A DNA stretch of 64,000 bases, taken from NCBI GenBank assembly GCA_038245295.1, contig JBBRSP010000011.1, positions 64,001 through 128,000 of the forward strand. The letters are read 5' to 3'. Source of the stretch: Candidatus Binatia bacterium. GTDB lineage: Bacteria; Desulfobacterota; Binatia; HRBIN30. Under the pieces are notes generated by a model. The model was not told the DNA's origin and made no database searches. It saw only the letters and a program-made list of their open reading frames with translations. How positions within the stretch are numbered: position 1 is the first letter of the stretch; each line of letters begins with the position of its first letter. The translations under genes and the position numbers were made by a program. Shown here in pieces: positions 16,374 to 31,324 of the stretch.

Positions 16374-16412
16374 CGCGTTGTTTCACGTTCTAGGATGAGG
16401 GGAGTTTCCAGC

Positions 16413-18713
16413 ATGCGGCATCATCTTGTTGTCTTCGGGGCGGTATTGGCGATTGCTTTATCTTCCTTGCAGGCCAATGCACTGACGATTCAGGAGTTCG
16501 CAAAGTGCCGCAAGGCCCTTGCGAATGGGACACGCGCTCTCGCGTTGAAAGTCATCATCGAGCAAGTAAAGTGTCACCAGAAACGCCTGCTGGGCACTGA
16601 CCCTGCCTACCCGCCGTCGCTCGACTGCAACACCATTACGTCTCTCCCCGTGAAAGCCCAAAACTCAATTTTGGCCAAAGAGCTGAAACTGACTACGTTG
16701 GCACAGAAGAAGTGTGACGCCGTACCCGATTTGTTGCCGGCATCGCAATTCGGTTACACGGTTTGTCTGGCATCGTCGCTGCCAGCGATGTTCCCCTGTC
16801 ACACGATACCGATCACCGCGAATTACAGCAGCGTTGCCGCCTGTTTGGCCTGCGAGGCCAAGGCCGATGCGACCTCGGCAACAATCGCGACGTACGGTGC
16901 TTTGCCCAATCCCCCGGTGCAAAGCGGCAAGACCCTTGCCTATAGCTGCCAGGACGGGATCGGTAAGAGTTATAAGGGCTATTTTGCGGCGCGCACCACG
17001 TTGGACCAGGCTTGCGAGTACAAGGTCGACCTTGGTACCCTCAATGGCGTCAACTGTCTTGCCTACGATCCGAAGTTGAAGATCGACAAGCAGCAGAACA
17101 AAGCGAACGACCGTATCGCGTTGGCCTGTAATGATGCGACGTTGGCGGCCCTGACGAGCTGCAGCTCGACTGAGGCCGGCGAGTTGGCTTGTTTCGACCA
17201 AGTTGCCAACGGGTTTACCGATTCGACGTTCTTCAACATCTACAACCCGCGTTCGCTCACCGCGACGCCGCTGCCCAGCTTTACCCCGACAGTCACGCCT
17301 ACACCCACCGTGACAGGGACCCCGACCGACACCGCGACGTCGACCGAGACGCCGACCGACACGTCGACACCGACGAGTACGGCGACACACACCCCGACCG
17401 TCACCCACACCTCGACGATCACTCAAACTTCGACCCGAACGCCAACAATCACGCGCACACCGACTGTGACGCGAACTGCCACACCGACCGACACCGGCAC
17501 ACCGACGGAGACACCGACGCCGACCGAGACAGAGATTCCCGGAGCGCCGACCCGAACACCGACCAACACGCCCACGGTAACGAGGACGGGAACGCCGACG
17601 CGGACACCGACGCCCACGGCGACGATTACCGATACACCGACGTCCACGGCGACGCCGACGCCGACATCGACCAGCACGTCGACAGGGACGCCGACGAGCA
17701 CCCCGACGAACACGTCGACCTCGACCGGAACACCTACGTCGACCTCGACCCCGACGGTGACCAATACAGCAACGATCACCGCGACGCCGACGCTGACGCC
17801 GTTGGCGAAGCTATGCACGCTTGGTGGCGGGTCAGCGAGTCAAGCGAGCATTCAATTTGACGCGAGCTACATCATCGTCAACATTGGACGTCCAACCTCG
17901 AATATCACTGGCAGCGTAGGTCTCGAGTTCTTCCCACAAGCGGTCGACGGGACGCGCGTCGTCAAGGTGCCCGGCTCCTCCGTCCATCTCAATCAGCTCG
18001 TCTTCAGCATTTCCGGCCTCGCCACGATCAACGCCTGTGTCTTGTCGCAGGTGGACGTCAACAATGTGCCGCTCGACGGATTCGGTACGATCGACTGCGA
18101 CGGCGGCGCACCAAACTACGACTATACGGTTGAGGTTGATCACAACACGTCGACAGCACCATCGACGCCTCCCGGTGGGTTCCCGCAAGACGCATCGTGC
18201 ACTCAAACCTTCATTGATCCGGTGACGGGTGGCACATCGTCGGCATGTCTGGAAGCCTCGGTGGCAACCTGCAATGCCAAGAATATCCACCTCGGAGTTT
18301 GCAACAGCGCGGTCCACACCACGTATGCTCAGCCGACACCGACACCACTACGTGCCTTCCCCCCCGGTGGTCTGACGATTCGTCTCCCGCTAGCCCTCAA
18401 GGTCCTCAGTAGTGGAACTTGTTCGAGTGGTGTCTTCGGCGCCACCGCTAACGTCGATGCCTTCCTGACCACGGGCCAAGCGCGTGGCATTGTCTACCAG
18501 TCGAATAACTCGACGAAGAAGATGGACGAGGGACAATCGGTCAAGGGCGGCACCGCGAAGACGCAAGTAACCGGAACTCCGCTCACGGCATTCTGCAGCA
18601 ATCCCACGGGCAGTACGCTCGCCGGATCGAAGATGGTGACGGCCTTCCCCGTGCTCGATCTCGATACAACCGCCGGTGATACGGTGGCGACGGTCGAGCT
18701 CACCTGCCAATAG
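16413..18713 (+). CDS. Large secreted protein: Cys-rich helical N-domain, about 180-aa Thr/Pro linker, Cys-containing beta-rich C-domain
   Basis: Sec signal [23 protein letters not shown] after GGAG; duplicated C(R/Q)xx(L/I)...C...C...C unit; TPT linker at about 17260-17800. Confidence 0.8.
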
Positions 18714-18737
18714 GCCGATAGACGGTCAGTGCTTCAG

Positions 18738-18776
18738 AAGACCGCGGCGCACATCAGTGCGCCGCGGTCTTTTTTT
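18738..18776 (+). terminator. Rho-independent terminator
   Basis: AAGACCGCGGCGCAC-ATCA-GTGCGCCGCGGTCTT followed by a T-run. Confidence 0.88.
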
Positions 18777-18830: not shown

Positions 18831-21140
18831 ATGCAGGCGCGAAGCGGTCGGTTGTGGTGGGTTCTATTGGCGGCCGGTGCGACCATCGTCAGCGCAGCGG
18901 CGTCGGTGAATGCGGCGCCCTCTATCCAGGTCGGAACTGGGATCGGTGGCCCGGGCGGCCTCGTGGTAGTGCCGACATCCCTCTCCGGGAACGGCGCCGC
19001 CGTTGTTGCCACGAGCAGCGATATTTCGATCGACACATCGCGGTTCCTGCTGCGTACGTGTGCGATCAATCCAGGTCTGGTTGGTCCGCCGGCCAATGCG
19101 GTGTTCTCCGGCCCCACCCCATACTGCAGTAGCAGTGAGATCTTGTGTGCCGGCGATGCCGATTGTCCGCCAGCCGAACACTGCAATCGACTTCGCCTCA
19201 AGATCCAGAGTCAGACGAACTCGGTTGTTCCGGACGGTGAGCTTTTCCACTGCACGTTTGTCATCTTCGCGGCGACGCCACCCGGTGGTTATCCGCTGCA
19301 CAATCTTTCGACGGCAAGCGACGCGCTTGGATCGCTAACGACTACCTCGTTGGACGGTCAGATCCTGGTGATCAATGGGCTGACGCCGACGCCGACGTTC
19401 ACCCGGACGGCGACGCTGACGCGCACTCCGACCCCGACCGCGACGCGTACGGCGACGGCATCCTCGACCGCGACCGGTACGCGGACCGCAACTCGAACAC
19501 TCACGCGGACAGCCACAGGCGCACCGAGCTCGACGCTGACACCGTCGGTGGCGCTACCGCGTGTCCACCTCGATCTTGCCGGCGCTACCGGCGAGCCTGG
19601 AGCAACCCTTACGGTTGCGGCGACCCTTCTCGGCGAAGGCCTGTCCGTGGCGCGAACTTCCAATGACCTGATGTTTGACTCGGACCGATTCTCCGTGCGC
19701 AACTGCGCCATCAACCCGGTTCTTTCGGACATGACCCCAAATCAGCAGCTCACGGGTCCGTCGCTGCTGTGTGGTGAAACCGCCGTGGCCTGTAGCGGCG
19801 ACGCGCAGTGCCCGCTCGGCGAGCGTTGTCAACGCCTGCGTGTCGGGACGACCAATACCGGTGGATTGACGGTGCCGGATGGGTTTCTGTTTTCGTGCAC
19901 GTTTGTCATTTTTCCCGGTGCAGAGGCGGGTGTCTATCCGCTGGTAAATTTGGCTACGGCACGCGATGCGCAAAACGTCGTGCTCCCCGGTACGACCGGC
20001 AAGGATGGTGTGTTGAAGGTTGTCTTGCTTTTGTCCCCGACGCCGACGCCATCGTTGAGCCCGACGCCGTCGACGACGATGACACCGACGACCTCCCCGA
20101 CCGTATCGCGCACGGCCACGCCATCGAAGACGGCGACCTCGACACAGACATCCACGACGACCGGCACCGCGACTGTGACACGATCGCCGACGCGCACAGG
20201 CACCTCGACGCCAAGCGCGTCGGCAAGTCGGACGGAGACGGTTACCCGCACCCCAAGTGCGACCGCCTCGGCAACACCGAGCGCGACAGTGTCGCGAACC
20301 GCGACTGCCTCACCCTCGCCAACGGTGTCACGATCGACGACCCCGACACGATCGGCCACAGGCACGCCGACGGCGACGCTGACGCGGACGGACACTACAA
20401 CCTCGACGCCATCGCGGACCGCGACGGTGACGCGTACCGGCTCGCCGACGGCTTCATCCACCAAGCCGGCGACTCGATCGCCAACGTCGACGCCGACATC
20501 GGCATCGACATCGACATCAACCGCATTACCCACGGCGACCTTCACCACAACGCCGACTGTGACGTCGACCGCGACCCTGACACCGAGCTCGACGCTGACG
20601 GCGACGCCGATACCGAGCCCAACGGCAACGCTGACGGCGTCCGGTACACCCAGCCCGACGGCAAGTTCAACGTCGACGCCCAGCACCACGCCAACCAGTT
20701 CCCCGACCGCCCAGCCAACCCTGAGCTCAACCCCGACGCCTTTGCCGAGTCACAGCCCTACTGTGTCGGCGTCGCCGACGGAAAGCCCGACGCCATTGCC
20801 CACCGAGACTTCGACCGCGACCCCGGTGGCGACCGCGAGCCGTAGCCTCACGCCAACCGCTACTCCGACGCCCATCTCGACTGTCTCGGCAACCGTGAGC
20901 GCGACCACAACGGCGAGCCCCACGCTCAGCCCTACGGCGGTCGTGTTGTGCGTCGGTGACTGCGACGCGGATGGGATGGTGACGGTCGACGAAGTGTTGC
21001 GTCTGGTGCGTATTGCGATCGGCGAAGGACCGATTGGATTGTGTGCGGCCGGCGATGTCGACGGCAACGGTCTAGTGACGATCGAGGAGATCGTCCGCAG
21101 CGTTAACGTGGCGCTGGAAGGCTGCGACGCTGCGGGTTGA
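18831..21140 (+). CDS. Secreted scaffold-like protein: 2 cohesin-like domains, about 300-aa Ser/Thr/Pro stalk, C-terminal dockerin-like domain
   Basis: Signal peptide ending SVNA; two homologous beta-domains (G.PG...V...TS.D...D..RF....CAINP...RLR...VPDG.LF.CTFVIF.....G.YPL.N...A.DA....DG); GDCDADGMVTVDE / GDVDGNGLVTIEE paired Ca-loops; GGAGG SD. Confidence 0.8.
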   Translation: MQARSGRLWWVLLAAGATIVSAAASVNAAPSIQVGTGIGGPGGLVVVPTSLSGNGAAVVATSSDISIDTSRFLLRTCAINPGLVGPPANAVFSGPTPYCSSSEILCAGDADCPPAEHCNRLRLKIQSQTNSVVPDGELFHCTFVIFAATPPGGYPLHNLSTASDALGSLTTTSLDGQILVINGLTPTPTFTRTATLTRTPTPTATRTATASSTATGTRTATRTLTRTATGAPSSTLTPSVALPRVHLDLAGATGEPGATLTVAATLLGEGLSVARTSNDLMFDSDRFSVRNCAINPVLSDMTPNQQLTGPSLLCGETAVACSGDAQCPLGERCQRLRVGTTNTGGLTVPDGFLFSCTFVIFPGAEAGVYPLVNLATARDAQNVVLPGTTGKDGVLKVVLLLSPTPTPSLSPTPSTTMTPTTSPTVSRTATPSKTATSTQTSTTTGTATVTRSPTRTGTSTPSASASRTETVTRTPSATASATPSATVSRTATASPSPTVSRSTTPTRSATGTPTATLTRTDTTTSTPSRTATVTRTGSPTASSTKPATRSPTSTPTSASTSTSTALPTATFTTTPTVTSTATLTPSSTLTATPIPSPTATLTASGTPSPTASSTSTPSTTPTSSPTAQPTLSSTPTPLPSHSPTVSASPTESPTPLPTETSTATPVATASRSLTPTATPTPISTVSATVSATTTASPTLSPTAVVLCVGDCDADGMVTVDEVLRLVRIAIGEGPIGLCAAGDVDGNGLVTIEEIVRSVNVALEGCDAAG
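20034..20940 (+). repeat. Low-complexity Ser/Thr/Pro (TPT/SPT/TAT) coding repeat
   Basis: About 300 consecutive codons dominated by T, S, P and A. Confidence 0.9.
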
Positions 21141-21205
21141 ACGCATGCGGCTTCCAAAGTGTCGGCCGCTATGCTTGACGGCGACACAGTAGGAACATCC
21201 GACCA

Positions 21206-22195
21206 ATGGCAGGAATCCGCGATCATATTCGGTTTGATAGTGTGTGGTGGAGAAAGTTCGCTTACCTCGGGAGTGCGCATGCGCCGGAGTGGTTCAAGCG
21301 CGCTGCTCCGCCGGCAATTGGGGCGACGATCTTTGCTTTGGCGAGTGGGCGCCGAGAGGCGGCCATTGAAAACATGATGCGGGTCCTCGGCACCAACGAT
21401 CGCGTCGTGGCACGCCGAGTCGCACTTCAGATGTTCCAGTGCTTTGCCCAATGCCTGAGCGAAACCCTCGAAAGTTACGGTTTGGGGACGGAAGGCGTGC
21501 GCTGCGACACACCTGCGGTGAACCCGGTGGCCGAGGCCCTGGAGGCGGGGCGTGGCGCCATCCTGGTGACGGCACATCTTGGCAACTGGGACCTGGCAGC
21601 CCATGCAATCCAGCACCGTGGCCATGCCATCAACGTCGTCATGGGCCGAGAACCCAATGAGACGGCGCAGGGTTACGGACAGCAGGCCCGCGAGGCGGTT
21701 GGGGTGCGTGTCATTTATTCCGACACTTCGGTTTTCGCCTCTTTGAACATGATTCGCGCTCTGCAACGCAACGAAATCGTCGCGCTGCAACTCGACCGCC
21801 TGCAGGGGCCACGCATGGTCGCTCAAGAGGTCCCATTCTTTGGGCGCCCGACGCCGTTTCCCGTTGGCCCATTTGCCCTTGCGCGGCTCAGTGGGGCTCC
21901 GCTGATTCCGGTGTTTGTCCCACGTCGCGGCAGGCGCCATTACGAATTGAAAGTCGGACAGCCATACTATGTGCGCCGCGGCGGCGATCGCCAGACGTTA
22001 CGTCACGTGATGGTCGAAGTGGTGGCCTACCTGGAATTGATTATCCGCGAACACCCAGACCAGTGGTTCCAATTCGCGCCGTTCTGGCCGTCGGTGGATA
22101 GCCCGAGGATCGCCAACTGCGGCACGCCCCCAGACGGCCGCGGCGCTGAGCTGAACCAACCGGGACAATCCGAGCACGCTGCCAAGGTACGTTAG
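21206..22195 (+). CDS. Lysophospholipid/lipid A late acyltransferase family (LpxL/HtrB-like)
   Basis: GRGAILVTAHLGNWD (HX4D), FFGRPTPFP.GP..LARLSGAPLIP, IREHPDQWF. Confidence 0.88.
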   Translation: MAGIRDHIRFDSVWWRKFAYLGSAHAPEWFKRAAPPAIGATIFALASGRREAAIENMMRVLGTNDRVVARRVALQMFQCFAQCLSETLESYGLGTEGVRCDTPAVNPVAEALEAGRGAILVTAHLGNWDLAAHAIQHRGHAINVVMGREPNETAQGYGQQAREAVGVRVIYSDTSVFASLNMIRALQRNEIVALQLDRLQGPRMVAQEVPFFGRPTPFPVGPFALARLSGAPLIPVFVPRRGRRHYELKVGQPYYVRRGGDRQTLRHVMVEVVAYLELIIREHPDQWFQFAPFWPSVDSPRIANCGTPPDGRGAELNQPGQSEHAAKVR

Positions 22196-22224
22196 CGTTT
22201 CTTGCCCCTTCCGCCGTTCTTCCC

Positions 22225-22926
22225 ATGACGCAAGATCCAAGCAACATACGACCCGCCGTGCTGATTCCGGCTCTCGAGGCGGCTACAACACTTGATGCCG
22301 TCGTGCAGGGGTGCCGCGACCTCGGCTTCCATGTCCTGGTCGTCGATGACGGGTCCAGTGACGGTACCGCGGCGATCGGTCGGGCCGCTGGAGCGTCGGT
22401 CCTGGTTCACGAACGCAATCGCGGCAAGGGTGCGGCACTGATGTCCGGGATGCGGACACTGGCGAAAGAGGGATTCACGCACGCCGTAACCGTGGATGCG
22501 GACGGGCAGCATCTCCCTTGGGAAATCAATAAGTTAGTGCGGAGTGCCGAGCACCAACCGCGGGCCATCGTGCTGGGTGATCGCCAGATGGCCAGCATTA
22601 CTCAGGCGGCGCGTTCCAACCAGTTTGGCAACCGCTTCGCGAACCGTTGGGTGGAGATTGCCTGCGGCGTTGCCCTGCCCGACACCCAGTCCGGCCTACG
22701 AGTGTACCCGCTGCACGCCACATTGGGGCTCGGCCTGCGCGCGGATCGATTCGCCTTCGAAACGGAAGTGCTGATTCGGGCTGTGCGTCAGGGCATCCCG
22801 ATTACGTCTGTTCCCGTTGCCGTTTACTACCCGCCGGCGGACCAACGGACCAGCCACTTCCGTCGCATCGTCGACACGGTGCGCATCATCGGAGTCGTCC
22901 TCGGGTTGATCTTTCGGATCTGGTGA
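22225..22926 (+). CDS. Glycosyltransferase family 2 (DPM1-like)
   Basis: VLIPA, VVDDGSSDGT, NRGKGAAL, TVDADGQH, DTQSGLRVYP, FETEVL. Confidence 0.9.
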   Translation: MTQDPSNIRPAVLIPALEAATTLDAVVQGCRDLGFHVLVVDDGSSDGTAAIGRAAGASVLVHERNRGKGAALMSGMRTLAKEGFTHAVTVDADGQHLPWEINKLVRSAEHQPRAIVLGDRQMASITQAARSNQFGNRFANRWVEIACGVALPDTQSGLRVYPLHATLGLGLRADRFAFETEVLIRAVRQGIPITSVPVAVYYPPADQRTSHFRRIVDTVRIIGVVLGLIFRIW

Positions 22927-22973
22927 CGCCTCAAAACCGACAAAATTTCCAACTGTTACCGGACAGAATCGCG

Positions 22974-23002
22974 TTGACAAGAGCTCGATACGGTGGCACC
23001 CT
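22974..23002 (+). promoter_or_regulatory. Candidate sigma70 promoter
   Basis: Perfect TTGACA-17 bp-CACCCT with extended -10 TG, upstream of the beta-propeller/dockerin gene. Confidence 0.45.
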
Positions 23003-23178
23003 CGCGCAGTTTTTGTGTATGACCCCCATTCCGGCCCGCGGATGTGGGTTGGGTCGTGGGGATGTACGCACGCGACGGAAGTGCGAAAGATGGCGGTTCG
23101 GTGGGTGCCAGGTACCACCGGAAAGTCTGGAGCGAAATGGTGAAGAGAAGCCTTCAAATGTCTGAAGTGAGGTGCGGC

Positions 23179-25683
23179 ATGCGGCAGTTGACTACGCAAT
23201 TGGCGAGGGTCGGGTGTGCATTGGCCGTCACGGCGTCGATTGCCGCGGCACAAGTTGGTACCCCGACCCCGATCAGGTTGGTGAGCGCGAATTCCTCCGG
23301 CTTGGCCGGAAACGGCCCGAGCAACGGCATCGCCGTAAGTACCGATGGTGGGATCGCTGCGTTTTACTCTGACGCGACCGATCTGGTGCCCGGCGATACG
23401 AATCAGATGCGCGACGTTTTTGTGCGAGATCTCAGCACGGGGCTCACTGAGCGTGTTAGCGTCAGCAGTAGCGGTGCCCAGGCAAACGGTGTCAGTCACA
23501 ATGCCTACGGTGGAGTGGCCATTTCTGGAAACGGACAGATTGTCGCGTTCTACTCCCAGGCCAGCAATCTTGTGGCGAACGATACGAACCGTTTTGCTGA
23601 CGTATTTGTTCGTCTGCGCGGATCCAGTTCGACGCAGCGAGTAAGTGTCGCTTCGGACGGTACCGAGGCCAACGGAGCGAGCGTTCTGCCGAGCATCAGT
23701 GCCGATGGTCGCTATGTCGTATTTCAGTCGGAAGCATCAAATCTCGTCGCCGGTGACACGAATCGGGTTACCGATATCTTCGTTCACGATCGGGTGACGG
23801 GCACGACGACGCGCGTTTGCAACGTCCAAGGTGACCTCTCGAGCTCGACGCCAGTGATCAGCGCGGACGGCAGCACCATAGCCTTTGCTTCTTCGGCGAC
23901 GAACCTCGTAAGCGACGATACCAACAATCATCTTGACATCTTTGTCTGCGACCGGGTGTCCGGCGTGCCTGAGCGAATCAGTCTTTCGTCGAGTCAGGAC
24001 GAAGGCAACGGAGACAGTATCTTACCGGCCCTCAGCGCCACCGGTCGTTTCGTCGGCTTCAAATCGCTTGCGGACAATCTGGTCGATGGCGATCGCAATG
24101 GATCCGTTGACGTCTTTGTTCGTGATCGACAAATGGGCAAGACGGAACGGATCTCGGTTGGTGTCAACGGTGGCGACTCTTCCGACGTGAACTTCCCGCC
24201 TACTCTCAGCAATGATGGTCGGTTCGTTGCGTTTGCTTCTTTTGCCAACAACCTGATCCAAAACGATTACAACCATTCCGTCGACGTCTTTGTTCGTGAC
24301 CGGCAGATCGGCGTCACCGTTGCGGTGCGTAACGACGCCGGCGACTTGCCAAACGGCAGCGCGCCGGACGTACCACCGAGCATCAGCGGCGACGGCAAGC
24401 AGGTCGGCTTCACGTCGCTTGCGACAAATCTTGTGGTTCCAGATCGCAATGAAGCGACCGACTCTTTCGTTGCAACCAACCCCTTCTATGGGCCGGGAAG
24501 CTGCCCCGACGGCACATGCCCCGACGGCAATGTCTGTGTTGCTGGATTCTGCGCGGTTCCGACCAAGACGCCGACGATCACGCGTACACCGACGCCGACC
24601 AAGACCGGCACGGCAACCAAGACACCGACCCCGACAGCAACCTTCCGGAGCTGTACGGATGACAGCCAATGCCGCGCCGACGAACACTGCCGCGCCGGGT
24701 TCTGCAAGAAGAAGCGCCCGTGCGACGACACCGATCCGACGATTGATCGGTTGGCGTGTTTTGGCGATCGTGAGACGTGTATCGACAACCTCTGCGAGTG
24801 TGGCGGGGATTGTAACCGCGACGGGGTTGTCCTGACCAACGAGATCACGAAGGCCGTGTTGATCCTGGCGGGAATCGAACCCATCACCAGTTGCACGGCG
24901 GCGGACATCAACTCTGACGGACAAGTGTTGGGCAACGAAATTACACTGTCTGTCATCAACCTGGGCGAGGGCTGCACGCAAGAGGGGCAACCGCTGATGT
25001 TCGCCCACGACCGTGGGGAGAAGGTCGCCCTGAAGGTTTCCTCCGGTACGAGCGGGCAGGGCAGCACGATCCCGGTGACGGTCGATATGTCCGGTGGCGG
25101 CGGCGACGTGGCCACGGCGCAGATCGATCTGCTGTTTGACCCGACCGTCTTGCACGTGCCCAATCCAGGTGCCGCCTGCCACCTCGACGATCGCTTGGCG
25201 TCCAACCACATTCTGGCGGCGACAATCACGGATACACCACCGGCCCCTCCGGGGTTGGCGCGTTTGCGCTTGTTCGTCGGAGACATTGTGGCTCCGATCG
25301 ACACCTTTGCCGACGGCCGCCTGGTGACGTGTGAGTTCGAAGTGGCGGCCGAGGCTCAACCCGGTATGTCGTTCGTCGTCGGTGATCGCCTGAACATCGG
25401 CGATGCACGCGGCAGCGTTTTCGATGCGGAGACGGTTGACGGCAGCGTCACGGTTTCTGGTCCGGCTGCCACCCCGACCCCAGCGGCTGGCGTGACGTGC
25501 GCTGGTGACTGCGACGGCGACGGCGAAGTCTTCGGGAATGAAATCACACAAGCGGTGCGGATTCTCGCCGGTGAAGCGCCACGGGCGGAGTGCGAAGCGG
25601 CCGACGCGGATGGTGATGGCGAAGTCTTCGTGACCGATGTCACGCAGGCCATCATGCATCTCGGACGCGGTTGTCCCCGCTAG
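23179..25683 (+). CDS. Secreted modular protein: 7-bladed TolB/PD40-like beta-propeller, Cys-rich repeats, dockerin-like, cohesin-like, dockerin-like
   Basis: Seven repeats RVSV...N..S..P.ISADGR.V.F.S.A.NLV..DTN...DVFVRDR; dockerin-like domains at 24799-24975 and 25498-25674; cohesin-like domain at about 25021-25458 (IPVTVDM...VATAQIDLLFDPTVL); GAGGTG SD. Confidence 0.82.
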   Translation: MRQLTTQLARVGCALAVTASIAAAQVGTPTPIRLVSANSSGLAGNGPSNGIAVSTDGGIAAFYSDATDLVPGDTNQMRDVFVRDLSTGLTERVSVSSSGAQANGVSHNAYGGVAISGNGQIVAFYSQASNLVANDTNRFADVFVRLRGSSSTQRVSVASDGTEANGASVLPSISADGRYVVFQSEASNLVAGDTNRVTDIFVHDRVTGTTTRVCNVQGDLSSSTPVISADGSTIAFASSATNLVSDDTNNHLDIFVCDRVSGVPERISLSSSQDEGNGDSILPALSATGRFVGFKSLADNLVDGDRNGSVDVFVRDRQMGKTERISVGVNGGDSSDVNFPPTLSNDGRFVAFASFANNLIQNDYNHSVDVFVRDRQIGVTVAVRNDAGDLPNGSAPDVPPSISGDGKQVGFTSLATNLVVPDRNEATDSFVATNPFYGPGSCPDGTCPDGNVCVAGFCAVPTKTPTITRTPTPTKTGTATKTPTPTATFRSCTDDSQCRADEHCRAGFCKKKRPCDDTDPTIDRLACFGDRETCIDNLCECGGDCNRDGVVLTNEITKAVLILAGIEPITSCTAADINSDGQVLGNEITLSVINLGEGCTQEGQPLMFAHDRGEKVALKVSSGTSGQGSTIPVTVDMSGGGGDVATAQIDLLFDPTVLHVPNPGAACHLDDRLASNHILAATITDTPPAPPGLARLRLFVGDIVAPIDTFADGRLVTCEFEVAAEAQPGMSFVVGDRLNIGDARGSVFDAETVDGSVTVSGPAATPTPAAGVTCAGDCDGDGEVFGNEITQAVRILAGEAPRAECEAADADGDGEVFVTDVTQAIMHLGRGCPR

Positions 25684-25716
25684 GTTCGGGCCATGGACGT
25701 TCTAGGAGGCAACACG

Positions 25717-27210
25717 ATGAGGAATCGGATGCAGAAGACCGGGTACCGGGTGGCCGTAGCGGCATCGCTCGCGGCCTTGTTGGTAGGTCCGGCGTCGGCA
25801 GTAGTTACGATTCAGGTGTCGACCAGCGACGGCGCACCCGGTGGAACGGTGATCCTTGGGTTGGGGCTGCGCCGCGACCCAGGTGACCGTTCGGTGGCAA
25901 CGGCGCAGACCGATGTGATTGTCCAGACAAACCAAATGAAGTTGGTTGGTACTTGTGCCGGGACGACGCAGGCCTGTTCGGCGGCCGACGAGTGCGGCGA
26001 ATCGGGCACCTGCACCTTGCCCTGTGAGAAGGAAGCGCGTCTAACCCAGCATAGCTTCGCAGCGACGCTACCCGCGTTTCAGAATTTGCCGGCGGGGCAG
26101 CAGCGCTTCAGAATGGCGATCGTCGACACGCAGTTCCCGATCGACACACTGACCGACGGGGCGCTGGCTACCTGCGTGCTGCATGTCCCGGACAACGCGG
26201 CATTGGCACCTCTGATCGTGACTACCGATCGCCTGAACGTTGGCGACGAACGCGGCAATGTCGTGCCGGCCGAAGTGGAGATCGCTGCTGGTATGATCAA
26301 GTTGCGAACTCCCACGCCGACCGCCACGATTACGCAGACGCTGGCGCCCTCGGCAACAGCGACGCCGGTTGGGACCCTGCCGACGTCTACACCAACTCCG
26401 ACGCGAACCGGAGGCAGCCCGACTCCGGATACAGCTCCCTGTCCGGCTCAGCGACCTGCGCCCTCGGGCCCAGCTCTTTATGTCGCCGACCAGACGTTGG
26501 CGGCGGGCGCCACGAGTGGGACGATCGAAGTGCGACTAGCGGCTTCCGATAGCCAGGTTGCCGGGACTCAAAATGATCTCGAGTTGCCGGCGAATATCCG
26601 GATCAAGGCGAAGGCGAATGGTCGCCCGGATTGCACCGTAAATAGTGCCATCAACAAGGGGGGGACCTCGTTTGCCTTCCGGCCCACAGGCTGTAATCCC
26701 GCGGCCGGCGAATGCTCGGTACGGGCTCTCGTCTTGTCGACGGAAGATACGAACCCGATCACACTCGATCTGCTCTACAGTTGCAACGTGACCGTCGCCA
26801 GCCGTGGCGGCGGGGTCGCGGTTACGGGAGTGATCCTCAGCACGCCAGAAGGCACGCGTGTTCCCGGAGCTAGCGGACGCAGTGGTGTGATCTGTGTTGA
26901 GGCATCGATAACTCCGACGCCGACGCCGACGCCGAGTTCGAGGCCTGCCACTCCCACGCCGACCATCACGGTTCGTACGCCGGCGACGCTTACTCCAACG
27001 ACGGTTGCGACGGCGACATCGACGGTGCGGGCGACAGCCACCCGCACACTCATCCCGGCGACCAATACGCCAGCACTCAACAACGGTGGTGGCGGCGGCG
27101 GTGGTGGATGCAACTGCGCCGTTTCGCCAGCGGAGGCGGCTAACGGCCTGTCTTCGATGTGGCTCGCCTTGCCGGCGCTGCTCCTGCAGTGGCGTCGTCG
27201 TCGGCGCTAG
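25717..27210 (+). CDS. Surface-anchored scaffold-like protein: 2 cohesin-like domains, Thr/Pro linkers, C-terminal MYXO-CTERM-like sorting signal
   Basis: Signal ending PASA; VATAQTD and VAGTQND beta-domains; C-terminus GGGGGGGG-CNCAV...MWLALPALLLQW-RRRRR; GGAGG SD. Confidence 0.82.
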   Translation: MRNRMQKTGYRVAVAASLAALLVGPASAVVTIQVSTSDGAPGGTVILGLGLRRDPGDRSVATAQTDVIVQTNQMKLVGTCAGTTQACSAADECGESGTCTLPCEKEARLTQHSFAATLPAFQNLPAGQQRFRMAIVDTQFPIDTLTDGALATCVLHVPDNAALAPLIVTTDRLNVGDERGNVVPAEVEIAAGMIKLRTPTPTATITQTLAPSATATPVGTLPTSTPTPTRTGGSPTPDTAPCPAQRPAPSGPALYVADQTLAAGATSGTIEVRLAASDSQVAGTQNDLELPANIRIKAKANGRPDCTVNSAINKGGTSFAFRPTGCNPAAGECSVRALVLSTEDTNPITLDLLYSCNVTVASRGGGVAVTGVILSTPEGTRVPGASGRSGVICVEASITPTPTPTPSSRPATPTPTITVRTPATLTPTTVATATSTVRATATRTLIPATNTPALNNGGGGGGGGCNCAVSPAEAANGLSSMWLALPALLLQWRRRRR

Positions 27211-27330: not shown

Positions 27331-28665
27331 GTGAAACATTTGAAGGAGAGCTTTGATCGCCGCTCTGCGGTGGTGGGGATCATCGGCCTAGGATATGTCG
27401 GGCTCCCCCTGGCGGCTACGTTCGCCGAATCCGGGTTTTCGGTTGTTGGCTTCGACATCGATCCGAGCAAGGTCGACGAGCTGCTTGCCGGGCGGAGCTA
27501 CATTCGCCACATTCCAGCCGAACGGATCCAGCCGCTGCTCCGGTCTCAAGCGGCGCCGCCCGGTCAACCCGGCTTTTTCCCGACAACCGACTTCGCGCTG
27601 TTGAGTGGGTGCGACGCCATCCTGATCTGCGTTCCGACGCCGCTCACGCAGAACCGTGAGCCCGACCTCTCGTACGTAACCAGTACGGCGGAAGCGATTG
27701 CCCGTCACCTCCGTAGCGGACAGCTCGTCGTGTTGGAGAGCACGACCTACCCGGGAACGACCGACGAGGTTGTCCGCGATACCCTCGAAGCTGGCGGCCT
27801 GCGTCTTGGCAAAGATTTTTTCCTCGCCTACTCCCCGGAGCGCGAAGATCCGAACAACGCGCTGTTCAACACGCGCTCCATTCCAAAGTTGGTGGGTGGC
27901 TGTACCCCGCTTTGTGGTGAGCTCGCATCGGCTCTTTACGCCGCCGTATTGGATCGCGTCATTACCGTCTCATCGGCGCGCGTCGCCGAGTCCGCCAAGC
28001 TCCTCGAGAACATTTATCGTTGCGTCAACATTGCCTTGGTCAATGAGCTTAAGGTCCTGTTCGACCGCATGGATATCGATGTCTGGGAAGTCATCGACGC
28101 AGCGGCCACGAAGCCTTTCGGGTTCACCCCATTCTACCCGGGGCCCGGCCTCGGCGGTCATTGTATTCCGATCGATCCGTTCTACCTCACGTGGAAGGCG
28201 CGCCAGTACGAGCTCACGACGCGCTTCATCGAGTTGGCTGGGGAGGTCAACCAGGGGATGCCGGCCTTCGTCATCACTAAAATTATGGAGGCGTTGAACG
28301 ACCGCGGTCGCAGCCTGAAGGGCTCGCGTGTTCTCGTTCTCGGTGTTGCCTACAAGCGCGACCTCGATGATACCCGCGAATCCCCGGCGCTGAAGCTGAT
28401 CGAACTGTTGATTCGCAAGGGCGCTGACGTTTGTTACCACGATCCTTACGTTCCGGCCTTGAAGCCGTCGCGACATTATGATTTTAACATGTGTGCTGTG
28501 AGCTTGACTCGCGAGGAGATGTGCGGCGCAGACGTAGTGGTCATCGCAACGGACCACACGTCCTACGACTACCAGCAGGTCGTGGAAGCCAGTCGGCTCG
28601 TAGTCGACACGCGCAATGCCACGCGGGGTGTAACATCGGGACGCGAGAAGATCGTCCGCGCTTGA
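27331..28665 (+). CDS. Nucleotide-sugar dehydrogenase (UDP-GlcNAc 6-dehydrogenase, WbpA/WecC-like)
   Basis: GLGYVGLPLA Rossmann motif, ICVPTP, LESTTYPGTT, KLLENIYR, GGHCIPIDPFYL catalytic Cys. Confidence 0.93.
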   Translation: MKHLKESFDRRSAVVGIIGLGYVGLPLAATFAESGFSVVGFDIDPSKVDELLAGRSYIRHIPAERIQPLLRSQAAPPGQPGFFPTTDFALLSGCDAILICVPTPLTQNREPDLSYVTSTAEAIARHLRSGQLVVLESTTYPGTTDEVVRDTLEAGGLRLGKDFFLAYSPEREDPNNALFNTRSIPKLVGGCTPLCGELASALYAAVLDRVITVSSARVAESAKLLENIYRCVNIALVNELKVLFDRMDIDVWEVIDAAATKPFGFTPFYPGPGLGGHCIPIDPFYLTWKARQYELTTRFIELAGEVNQGMPAFVITKIMEALNDRGRSLKGSRVLVLGVAYKRDLDDTRESPALKLIELLIRKGADVCYHDPYVPALKPSRHYDFNMCAVSLTREEMCGADVVVIATDHTSYDYQQVVEASRLVVDTRNATRGVTSGREKIVRA

Positions 28666-28940: not shown

Positions 28941-30056
28941 ATGCGAACGGTGAAGTGGAACCTATTACTCTCAGGCCTCGTAGGAATGGCGGCCCTGGGA
29001 GTCGTGGCGTCAGGGGTGCAGGCTGACGTCACTTCGGAGAAGGCGGCTTCGATCCTCATCTTTCCAGCCGTCACAACGGCGGAGCAATTTGGGACCCCGA
29101 CAGATACGGTCATCCAGATTGCAAACACGAGCAACTCGATGGTTCACGCCCACTGTAACTATGTGGATGCGAGCCGCTTCGACAGCATCACGGGGCAGCC
29201 GTGCAACCTTCCTAGCCCGAGCTGCATCGCAGCCTGGCAGGAAACTGACTTCGACATTTGGCTCACCAAGCAACAGCCAACCCACTGGGTTGTGAGCACT
29301 GGTCGCCGTGTTGATCCGACGGACGGTTTCGACCTAAACGGGTCTGGCTTCGATCCTGGGCATGTCCCGCCGATGGCGAACTTCAGCGGTGAGCTCAAGT
29401 GTGTCGAGGTTACAGCCTCGGGTGAGCCCGTCGCTGGTAATCACCTCAAGGGTGAAGCCGAGATCGTTCTGCCTAGCGAGGCTGGAGACATCTCCAAGTA
29501 CAATGCAATCGGCATTGAGGCGAACCCGGATGCGACGCCGGCGAATCCTTTGCTGCTCGACGGGAATGTGTACAACGCCTGTCCTGCCAAGCTCTGGTAC
29601 AACCATGCGGCTGATGATTCCGACACGATCTCCCAGATCGGGGCACCGACGACCAACCGTGTTGGCGCGGTACTGGTCCCTTGCAGCGAAGACTTCGAGA
29701 ATCAGATTCCGAAAAGCGTTACGGTCCAGTTCAAGGTCTACAACGAGTTCGAAGAGGTCTTCTCGGCGAGCACCACCGTCACTTGTCTCCTCTCGACGGT
29801 TCTCTCGGATATCGACAGCCCGAGCAACAACAGCGCTTCGGTGTTCAACGAAGCCGTCCTTGGAACTCCGTTTGCGATGTCGGTCATCACGCCGGTGGCG
29901 CAGCCAGACGGTAGCTCGGGCGGAGTGGTAGGCATCGGCCTCCATGCCTTGTACCAAGGCGGACAGGTCGCGCTTGCGGCAACCAGCCTCCACGGCACTG
30001 GCGACCTGGTTCCTGCGGCGGGCCCAGATTCAATCTATCTGGCCCCTCGTGAGTAA
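28941..30056 (+). CDS. Secreted Cys-containing beta-rich protein of unknown function, paralog 1
   Basis: Very strong SD AAAGGAGGAGG; signal ending VQA; end-to-end similarity to the next gene. Confidence 0.85.
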   Translation: MRTVKWNLLLSGLVGMAALGVVASGVQADVTSEKAASILIFPAVTTAEQFGTPTDTVIQIANTSNSMVHAHCNYVDASRFDSITGQPCNLPSPSCIAAWQETDFDIWLTKQQPTHWVVSTGRRVDPTDGFDLNGSGFDPGHVPPMANFSGELKCVEVTASGEPVAGNHLKGEAEIVLPSEAGDISKYNAIGIEANPDATPANPLLLDGNVYNACPAKLWYNHAADDSDTISQIGAPTTNRVGAVLVPCSEDFENQIPKSVTVQFKVYNEFEEVFSASTTVTCLLSTVLSDIDSPSNNSASVFNEAVLGTPFAMSVITPVAQPDGSSGGVVGIGLHALYQGGQVALAATSLHGTGDLVPAAGPDSIYLAPRE

Positions 30057-30108
30057 TCTCGAGCGCAACGTGCCAACGCACTCGTTTAGGACCGAAAGGA
30101 GAAGGGCA

Positions 30109-31260
30109 ATGCGTACGGTGAAGTGGAATGCCATGCTCTCGAGCGCGGTCTGCGCTCTAGGGGGTATCGCGGTGTGGTCAGGGGTGGCGCGCGCTGATGT
30201 CTCGTCAACCAACCCGGCAGCGATCCTCGTTTTTCCGAAACTCGTTTTCAGCACGGGCGCATCGACCGACACGATCGTTCAGGTGTCGAACACCGCCAAC
30301 CATCCGGTTAACGTTCGCTGCTTCTATGTCAATGCAAATGGGCACTGCTCGAACAACCCCAGCTCGATCTGTGATCCGTACACCCTCGAAGGTTCGACTT
30401 CGTGTGGCAGCACGGGCTTCTGCATCCCTGGCTGGCAAGAGACGGACTTTGCGTTCCGTCTGACCTCCAACCAACCGATTGCCTGGCCGCTCAGCGCCGG
30501 TGCTGCGAACTTGCCGCTGGCCGACCGCTCTGGCCCGACTGGCGAGTTTAACTCGGGTTCGATTCCTCCAGCCCCTGAAGACCCCATCCAAGGCGAGCTC
30601 AAGTGTATCGAAGTCGGCGACGACGAGCTTCCTGTCGATCAGAACGACCTTATCGGCAACGCGTCGATTGAGGCGCACCGCACTGGAGCGGCCGTCGATA
30701 TCCGCAGCTATAATGCGACCGGCATTCAGGCGATCGAGGGCGCGAACAATCGTGACAACACGCTTGTCCTCGGCACCGAGTACAATGGTTGCCCGAATAT
30801 CTTGGTTCTCGACAACTGGTTTGACAACGCCATTCATCCAGTGACGGGTGCCCAGATGCGCAGCGAAGTGACATTCGTTCCTTGCTCGGAAGACTTCAAC
30901 TTCCAAGCCCCGCAGCCGGTTACTGTCCAGTACCTGGTTTTCAACGAGTTTGAGCAACGCTTCTCGACGAGCAAGCCGGTTACCTGCTTCCAGGAGATCC
31001 AGCTCTCGGACATCGATACGCGTCTTGGACCGACCGATGACCGCTTCTCGATCTTCAACGTTAACGTGCAAGGCACATTGACCGGCCAGACGACCGCTCG
31101 CGGCGTCCAGACCAGCTCTCAGACCAGCGGCACGGGATTGTTGGCGGTCTTGGAGGAGTTCTCGAACGGCCGCTCAGCAGCCAGCGAGGCGCATCAGCGT
31201 GGTACCCGTACCCAGCGTGATGTGATCCTTCTCCCGTCTGCCCAGCCGTCGGGTCTCTAG
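30109..31260 (+). CDS. Secreted Cys-containing beta-rich protein of unknown function, paralog 2
   Basis: SD AAAGGAGAAGG; same MRTVKWN start; shared WQETDF, GELKC.EV, VPCSEDF, NEFE..FS, LSDID motifs. Confidence 0.85.
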   Translation: MRTVKWNAMLSSAVCALGGIAVWSGVARADVSSTNPAAILVFPKLVFSTGASTDTIVQVSNTANHPVNVRCFYVNANGHCSNNPSSICDPYTLEGSTSCGSTGFCIPGWQETDFAFRLTSNQPIAWPLSAGAANLPLADRSGPTGEFNSGSIPPAPEDPIQGELKCIEVGDDELPVDQNDLIGNASIEAHRTGAAVDIRSYNATGIQAIEGANNRDNTLVLGTEYNGCPNILVLDNWFDNAIHPVTGAQMRSEVTFVPCSEDFNFQAPQPVTVQYLVFNEFEQRFSTSKPVTCFQEIQLSDIDTRLGPTDDRFSIFNVNVQGTLTGQTTARGVQTSSQTSGTGLLAVLEEFSNGRSAASEAHQRGTRTQRDVILLPSAQPSGL

Positions 31261-31291: not shown

Positions 31292-31324
31292 AAGGGGGGC
31301 CGCGCTTTGCGCGGTCCCCCTTTT
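31292..31324 (+). terminator. Rho-independent terminator
   Basis: GGGGGGCCGCGC-TTT-GCGCGGTCCCCC followed by TTTT. Confidence 0.8.

Follow-up and report, generated by a model that had tools for sequence, protein, structure and literature searches.

Cohesins and dockerins are the paired modules of clostridial and ruminococcal cellulosomes, and their presence at a bacterial locus that encodes no glycoside hydrolases raises the question of what such modules might hold together, and where. The locus lies in a window of 64,000 nucleotides (G000:C11:64001-128000; contig JBBRSP010000011.1) in the 6.6 Mb, 96.6% complete genome of a Candidatus Binatia bacterium (G000; GCA_038245295.1), and centres on three genes whose products are here called A, B and C (Table 1). 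An earlier note on this DNA had described a propeller of seven blades, a MYXO-CTERM tail and, in total, five cohesin-like and three dockerin-like domains in these products, all of which are confirmed by open reading frames (ORFs), profiles and predicted folds. It had also described three neighbouring genes without carbohydrate-active enzymes: the genes are where it placed them but are not contiguous, an acyltransferase and a family 2 glycosyltransferase (GT2) lying between A and B, and the absence of enzymes holds for hydrolases at the locus but not for the GT2, nor for a dockerin-bearing GH10 elsewhere in the genome. Judging from sequence, we consider it likely that this is a non-cellulolytic cohesin-dockerin system, in which a lipid-anchored surface protein, C, holds dockerin-tagged proteins in calcium-dependent sockets.

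The predicted structures support the view that the cohesin and dockerin folds of the locus are genuine. An AlphaFold2 model of the dockerin-cohesin-dockerin part of B (93 sequences, pLDDT 94, pTM 0.78) contains a nine-stranded cohesin beta-sandwich whose best structural match is 6kgc_A (Z 19.0 and rmsd 1.8, with 138 residues aligned); cohesins fill the top 20 places among the structural matches, the next fold follows at Z 10.4, and Foldseek agrees. A model of the dockerin of A (66 sequences, pLDDT 91) shows two calcium-loop/helix repeats, with helices at 13-23 and 45-57, and is closest to 2ccl_B (Z 6.7, rmsd 2.9, 59 aligned), and its top 13 matches are all dockerins; positions 1, 5 and 12 of the dockerin loop are mostly D, N or E. 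The structural check suggested in the earlier note came out in favour of both modules. Two other identities were tried and rejected: an immunoglobulin (Ig) or pilin fold for the beta-domain, at Z of no more than 10.4 versus 12.5-19 for cohesins, and an EF-hand for the dockerin, on the grounds of fold, as EF-hand pairs superpose at about 11 A. Against sequences in the PDB, the dockerin profile retrieved mostly weak EF-hand matches, the best at E 1.5e-4, along with a single dockerin (E 0.017). In B, Pfam recognises the cohesin (PF00963, 28.5 vs 24.1 bits) and the last dockerin (Dockerin_1, 24.5 vs 22.9 bits). The profiles of the three remaining cohesin classes, namely those of A, of the first cohesin of C (C-coh1) and of its second (C-coh2), match each other and also solved cohesins at E 1e-7 to 1e-8 (1.4e-8, 1e-7 and 2.6e-8, respectively), and cohesin paralogs of the C-coh2 and A-like classes lie above the PF00963 cut-off.

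The case for anchoring begins with the C-terminus of C, where a G8-CNC-TM-RRRRR tail reaches 22 bits with TIGR03901, against a cut-off of 20 (26.9 bits when the whole genome was searched), and is one of only two tails in the genome above that cut-off. About ten further MYXO-CTERM-like tails were noticed with a loose pattern on contigs C3, C5, C7, C9, C11, C14, C22 and C35. A candidate protease with a myxosortase core is encoded on contig C3, near 111259-111876 (NF040914, 100.7 vs 100 bits; below the MrtX/C/P equivalog cut-offs). The cell is a diderm, given that BamA and the type II secretin GspD (555 vs 351 bits for the latter) pass their cut-offs, and the proposal of a MYXO-CTERM-type anchor in a diderm bacterium therefore stands, with tail, myxosortase-family and type II secretion genes all present. 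A, B and C each have a signal-peptide-like N-terminus and a purine-rich element 5' of the start. By analogy with the Myxococcus model (PMC11980579), C would be exported, lipidated on a Cys of the tail and cleaved by the myxosortase, after which type II secretion would carry it outwards.

What might be held by such an anchor becomes apparent only at the scale of the genome, of which this locus is one node. A dockerin profile, seeded from 52 motif matches and run on the genome's ORFs, gave 123 matches in 122 ORFs at E 1e-3 and 120 domains in 119 ORFs at 1e-5, which supplies the genome-wide count that the earlier note had called for; cohesin-like domains number 36, in 21 ORFs, so that dockerins exceed cohesins roughly 3:1. 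A survey of 250 other genomes of the class found the dockerin family in 42/42 genomes of the order and in 3/208 outside it, and the C-coh2 cohesin family in the same numbers; two genomes outside the order (G096 and G188) have both. Counts per relative are lower bounds, and three genomes of family f3 have 5-9 dockerin matches. Multi-cohesin scaffoldins with a predicted anchor in the source genome comprise C, with two cohesins, and proteins on contigs C12 (three, tailed) and C31 (five, with a lipobox). The second cohesin of C is an add-on, found in this genome and at three of 20 loci retrieved with the closest matches to B. Common-dockerin genes directly 5' of tailed scaffolds of the C-coh2 type form a second recurring gene set, an instance of which, two common-dockerin genes followed by the three-cohesin tailed scaffold (C12:37619-33301), recurs in relatives. 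The five-cohesin protein (C31:68228-72184) is a predicted lipoprotein scaffoldin that also has two CHRD domains. We infer that C-coh2, together with its paralogs on other anchored scaffolds, binds the common dockerin of about 118 proteins, among them A, propellers, peptidases, esterases and multihaem cytochromes; with one dockerin shared by so many proteins and bound by anchored scaffolds, a single tag could replace the individual lipid anchor.

A scan for the nature of this cargo covered 108 of the 119 dockerin ORFs (all but A, B and nine short ORFs) with Pfam at 1e-5: 51 had a match, which in three cases was to EF-hand or cohesin alone, and the other 57 had none. Propellers dominate the matches (BNR, NHL, Vgb, FG-GAP, Kelch, lactonase), accompanied by peptidases, a carboxylesterase, a phosphoesterase, a sugar dehydrogenase, a MauG-type peroxidase and two multihaem cytochromes. 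A crude signal-peptide filter passed 71/110 dockerin ORFs versus 32% of background ORFs, a result too rough to be relied upon. Could the system nevertheless be a divergent polysaccharide-degrading cellulosome? We regard this as highly improbable. The 108 do include a GH10, a CBM96 and a heparinase-like protein, and the 57 proteins without a Pfam match, BNR propellers or beta-helices could hide further sugar enzymes, but GH9 and CBM3 were not found in the genome with searches that were positive in control genomes, and three GH5 matches in the genome are not among the listed dockerin ORFs. GH48 gave no match in the genome, and the controls gave none either. The GH10 protein (C10:23488-24855), with a C-terminal common dockerin, is the only clear glycoside hydrolase among the cargo, and the non-cellulolytic role proposed in the earlier note is upheld.

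It is the cytochromes that connect the dockerin with membrane anchoring. One cargo protein (C5:221448-218779) belongs to the OmcA/MtrC family (TIGR03507, 380 vs 209.3 bits) and carries 10 CXXCH motifs. Its gene leads a series (C5:221448-214689) in which the dockerin-bearing decahaem gene precedes a beta-barrel-like ORF (Atlas lead 0.93) and ORFs with 7, 4 and 12 haem motifs, by its gene content a predicted Mtr-like porin-cytochrome cluster. In the whole genome, 23 ORFs have five or more haem motifs, and a nine-haem cytochrome with an Ig domain ends in a common dockerin (C7:143720-146359). In Shewanella, OmcA/MtrC cytochromes have an N-terminal lipoprotein anchor, in the place of which the C5 protein has a dockerin. 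Across the best 30 decahaem loci in the order, the dockerin directly follows the signal peptide in 10 and a lipobox occupies that position in 20 (17 recognised by pattern, three by eye), with none carrying both; starred branches of the decahaem cytochrome tree force at least three changes of anchor. DUF3604 proteins at 30 loci behave similarly in that four have the dockerin, seven a lipobox motif (one doubtful) and none both. At the other terminus, among 120 homologs of B, a MYXO-CTERM-like tail replaces the last dockerin of relatives in a propeller protein (P0098) and in seven Coh-Doc-Coh proteins; of these eight swaps, seven were found by pattern and one (P0087) by eye. Exchange with membrane anchors at both termini is as expected of a surface-tethering tag, and the decahaem exchange in particular lends comparative support, at the level of sequence, to anchoring.

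The same cargo bears on whether the complexes face outwards at all. They might instead lie in the periplasm or on the inner-membrane side, organising the envelope rather than displaying proteins outside, a reading in keeping with the TolB-like propeller of B and with the MauG-type peroxidase and sugar dehydrogenase among the cargo, which are usually periplasmic enzymes. We judge it unlikely, as MYXO-CTERM proteins of Myxococcus arrive at the cell surface via type II secretion (PMC11980579), for which GspD is encoded here, and OmcA/MtrC-family cytochromes are surface proteins in Shewanella, the gene found here being followed by the beta-barrel-like ORF and multihaem genes.

Within the three-gene locus itself, B and C are a conserved pair with a predicted code of their own, and A carries the common dockerin. 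At 18 of the 20 retrieved loci the gene after B opens with a related cohesin, and the other two are not B orthologs; the usual order continues with a UDP-sugar dehydrogenase and two paralogs without a family. (A homolog search with C-coh1 returned only two proteins, and orthologs were therefore taken from genome loci.) In a cohesin tree of 64 rows, the cohesin of B and C-coh1 group together (support 89/81), with C-coh2 apart (96/90) and the pair from A likewise (97/91). The two dockerins of B, Doc1 and Doc2, are the only 2/120 in the genome with a hydrophobic-G/T-N-E recognition motif: positions 9-11 of the first-repeat calcium loop are mostly T, I/V and D in 104 common dockerins, and mostly F/L, G/V and N in 97 homologs of B. 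The docking face of cohesins consists of strands 8-3-6-5, according to the relevant part of PMC5429695; taking the outward residues of these strands, numbered in order from the B model, this face is more conserved than the opposite one in the B cohesin (entropy 0.80 vs 2.27 bits) and in the C-coh2 class (1.38 vs 2.47 bits).

A hint of specificity is a charge switch between Doc2 and the first cohesin of the next gene. Where loop position 9 of Doc2 is not Arg, being mostly hydrophobic, strand 6 of the facing cohesin is basic (19 pairs, of which one has a single Arg), and where it is Arg, that strand carries acidic residues (10 pairs), so that charge states are matched in 29/29 pairs. Doc1 and the internal cohesin of B show no charge switch in any pair. 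Both types of pair occur in one genome (G003) within a three-gene chain, each terminal dockerin matching the cohesin of the next gene. The set leaves out two loci with partner genes cut off (G049 and G031) and one with a different gene (G006); the register for G002, G025, G003 and G023 was read with the help of alignments, the columns of the last two being shifted. When Doc2 is left out of the tree, three changes of state are counted, and 3/3 independent contrasts agree, which is suggestive of a coordinated change of code but not significant. Partial distance correlations with the C-coh1 face did not separate Doc1 (0.51) from Doc2 (0.52) and were not used. C-coh1 would then bind Doc2 as a private pair. 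That the modules do not pair at all, domain shuffling having spread dockerins as tags that bind calcium for stability and cohesins as mere spacers, strikes us as improbable: PMC5244752 calls the function of non-cellulosomal modules unknown, and some three dockerins per cohesin would suit such a scheme, but matched charge switching, one-sided face conservation and exchange of dockerins with lipid anchors are not expected under it.

Doc1, for its part, may bind the cohesin of B, whether within one molecule as a clasp or between successive molecules. In the latter case B would self-assemble, with Doc1 reaching the cohesin of the next B, into chains or a lattice pinned to the surface by C and serving as a structural coat or adhesive layer. 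This is compatible with C as a surface anchor and differs in the role given to the cassette of Doc1 and cohesin; we entertain it tentatively, and the surface meshwork suggested in the earlier note may still apply to B. In its favour, the cassette recurs in other architectures with its 12-residue linker conserved, the docking face of the internal cohesin hardly varies, a single code is common to Doc1, Doc2 and the two private cohesins of this genome, and the UDP-sugar dehydrogenase and two secreted paralogs are conserved downstream. Set against this, the pTM of the B model (0.78), for which rough arithmetic gives 0.54 with the dockerins unplaced and 0.71-0.79 with at least one placed, suggests that at least one is placed but is fitted equally well by a clasp, and the S-layer lead for the paralogs is weak (0.76).

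A differs from its neighbours in its distribution. It is a lineage-specific adaptor, with a close ortholog in 1/51 other genomes of the order (G007, 50% identity), and lies beside B in 2/52 genomes. It is not a chance neighbour of B, because the G007 ortholog is directly upstream of B, there without the acyltransferase between them. The synteny check proposed in the earlier note thus favours B and C, kept together in 18/20 loci, but not A, and its picture of a single anchor-adaptor-cargo hierarchy of three genes has to be given up: B and C appear to use a private code, A is mostly absent, and cargo is spread across the genome. Immediately 5' of A (16395-18713) is a gene for another secreted protein, of 772 aa, in which a Cys-rich N-terminal part is joined by a Pro/Thr stalk to an unassigned C-terminal domain; it has no family match.

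It is worth noting however, that a number of observations weigh against C as the surface anchor of a dockerin-tagged coat. Firstly, Pfam gave no cohesin or dockerin match in either A or C, with the consequence that four of the five cohesins and the A dockerin were missed; of the profile searches proposed in the earlier note (PF00963, PF00404, TIGR03901), those for the B cohesin, Doc2 and the C tail succeeded, but the cohesins of A and C and the A dockerin gave no match. The structural Z of the dockerin is modest (6.7 at best), with Foldseek E-values above 0.001. Secondly, the myxosortase match clears its cut-off by only 0.7 bits, and the tail helix of C, like that of its orthologs, contains Leu-Pro, where the defining preprint (10.1101/2023.06.07.544157), in the part that sets out the signal, describes a helix without proline. 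Thirdly, face conservation is borderline in the A class (1.72 vs 2.19 bits, p 0.049), and the C-coh1 class shows no excess on its docking face (2.15 vs 2.20 bits), which we attribute to its code changing between lineages. Fourthly, the charge switch offers only three independent contrasts (sign test p 0.25) in neighbouring genes that are inherited together, and the pairing of the common dockerin with C-coh2 is drawn from neighbourhood and co-occurrence alone. Finally, the dockerin is an optional tag in the DUF3604 set, as 19 of the 30 loci carry neither it nor a lipobox.

How does this system compare with those already described? Like clostridial and ruminococcal cellulosomes, it has both folds, an anchor and adaptor layout, more than one specificity class and many dockerin-tagged proteins. 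Unlike them, it belongs to a diderm host, its anchors are MYXO-CTERM or lipoprotein rather than SLH or sortase, its dockerins have four conserved Cys, and its cargo includes cytochromes, peptidases and propellers, with no GH9 or CBM3 found. The scaffold would work in the manner of a cellulosome scaffold, but the system is not a cellulosome, because glycoside hydrolases do not dominate the cargo. Non-cellulosomal systems have been proposed before in Planctomycetes, Cloacimonadota and anaerobic methanotrophic (ANME) archaea. The 'Planctosome' of freshwater Nemodlikiaceae (PMC6461901), as presented in part of that paper, is likewise a predicted non-cellulosomal anchor-adaptor-cargo system of a diderm known from genomes only, but with a lamin-tail anchor bearing one cohesin and with peptidase cargo; an order-wide pool of such size, a paired code switch and redox cargo are features of the present system that the portion of the account at hand does not contain. 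Ca. Stygibacter (Cloacimonadota), according to excerpts of PMC8542988, resembles it in a multi-cohesin scaffoldin and dockerin-bearing hydrolases in an uncultured lineage, and differs in having a single large scaffoldin with carbohydrate-binding modules, a CTD anchor and cargo of biopolymer hydrolases. In ANME archaea, dozens to more than 100 domains occur without cellulolysis, and a role in adhesion of multihaem cytochromes has been speculated upon (PMC5244752, in part); the evidence there consists of domain counts, whereas here the dockerin is fused to a decahaem cytochrome in place of a lipobox.

The Myxococcus MYXO-CTERM/myxosortase pathway and TraA (10.1101/2023.06.07.544157, PMC11980579; both as far as the sections concerned go) share with this system a Cys-containing tripartite tail, a protease with a myxosortase core and a type II secretin, and differ in that the tail helix here contains proline and its passenger is a scaffoldin. 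In the same sections the pathway is described as restricted to Myxococcota within the authors' genome set, Binatia are not mentioned in either source, and cohesin and dockerin are not mentioned in the preprint. A literature search found no report of cohesin or dockerin modules in Binatia, and the main texts of PMC11557425, PMC8262859 and PMC12133095 make no such link, although the supplements of PMC11557425 could list Binatia matches. We regard the system as real, as order-wide and as a variation on those described before.

A bolder proposition, to which we would give somewhat less than an even chance, is that the whole order uses cohesin and dockerin for surface sorting, a dockerin of about 60 residues replacing lipid anchors, including those of MtrC/OmcA-type cytochromes, with an orthogonal and repeatedly re-coded B-C pair building a polymerising propeller layer. 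Enzymes, adhesins and electron-transfer proteins would then form a coat on lipid-anchored scaffolds, with members that can be exchanged. The swap of lipobox for dockerin in decahaem cytochromes in itself predicts a scaffold-hung route of extracellular electron transfer. The system also extends MYXO-CTERM-type sorting beyond myxobacteria and could be a source of new, orthogonal, likely disulfide-stabilised plug-and-socket pairs for protein engineering. The function of cohesins and dockerins outside of cellulosomes, an open question in the relevant passages of PMC5244752, becomes testable here with small soluble domains, since cognate pairs are predicted and the natural charge switch provides swap controls.

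Table 1. Features of the cohesin-dockerin locus and its neighbours (positions within the window)
Feature	Position	Strand	Basis
Protein A, adaptor-like: signal peptide, two cohesins, Pro/Thr stalk, common-class dockerin	18831..21140	+	769 aa ORF; G007 ortholog
A cohesin 1, A class, Cys-rich insert	18915..19373	+	class profile
A cohesin 2, A class	19557..20024	+	class profile
A stalk, 305 aa, 70% Thr/Pro/Ser	20028..20942	+	composition
A dockerin, common class, four conserved Cys, two disulfides predicted	20949..21137	+	model pLDDT 91, structural matches, alignment
Lipid A/PIM-type acyltransferase, between A and B	21206..22195	+	Pfam/NCBIfam
GT2 glycosyltransferase, between A and B	22225..22926	+	Pfam/NCBIfam
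Protein B: signal peptide, seven-blade propeller, Cys-rich/PT stalk, Doc1-cohesin cassette, terminal Doc2	23179..25683	+	834 aa ORF
Seven-blade TolB-like (PD40) propeller, bounds approximate	23266..24474	+	seven repeats, Pfam
B Doc1, private class, always followed by internal cohesin	24799..24984	+	profile, loop motif
B cohesin, predicted docking face near-invariant	25021..25458	+	Pfam, predicted fold
B Doc2, private class, covaries with first cohesin of next gene	25498..25680	+	Pfam, covariation
Protein C, predicted anchoring scaffoldin	25717..27210	+	497 aa ORF, tail, conserved pairing with B
C cohesin 1, private class, putative receptor of B Doc2	25801..26307	+	tree, class profile, covariation
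C cohesin 2, expanded class, putative receptor of common dockerin	26467..26901	+	tree, profile, neighbourhood
MYXO-CTERM-type sorting signal: Gly run, two Cys, hydrophobic helix, Arg5	27100..27207	+	TIGR03901
UDP-sugar dehydrogenase, conserved downstream neighbour	27331..28665	+	Pfam, synteny
Two paralogous secreted proteins (~36-40% identical), no Pfam/NCBIfam family, conserved 3' of B-C	28941..31260	+	synteny

Around these genes, pattern matches mark a strong terminator-like hairpin before A (18736-18773) and another after the downstream genes (31292-31322), and a promoter scan found sites no more frequent than in shuffles (5 vs 3.3). The S-layer lead for the two paralogs is to Slr4, and an Atlas search with a neighbouring protein of 371 aa returned unnamed clusters only. 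A separate cluster elsewhere in the genome (C21:55310-64205) encodes a six-cohesin protein, a tailed Doc-Coh protein and more canonical dockerins of a different type, probably a third specificity. In one relative (G028, L057:11419-12840), C is separated from the UDP-sugar dehydrogenase by an ORF that by eye resembles the reverse transcriptase of a group II intron.

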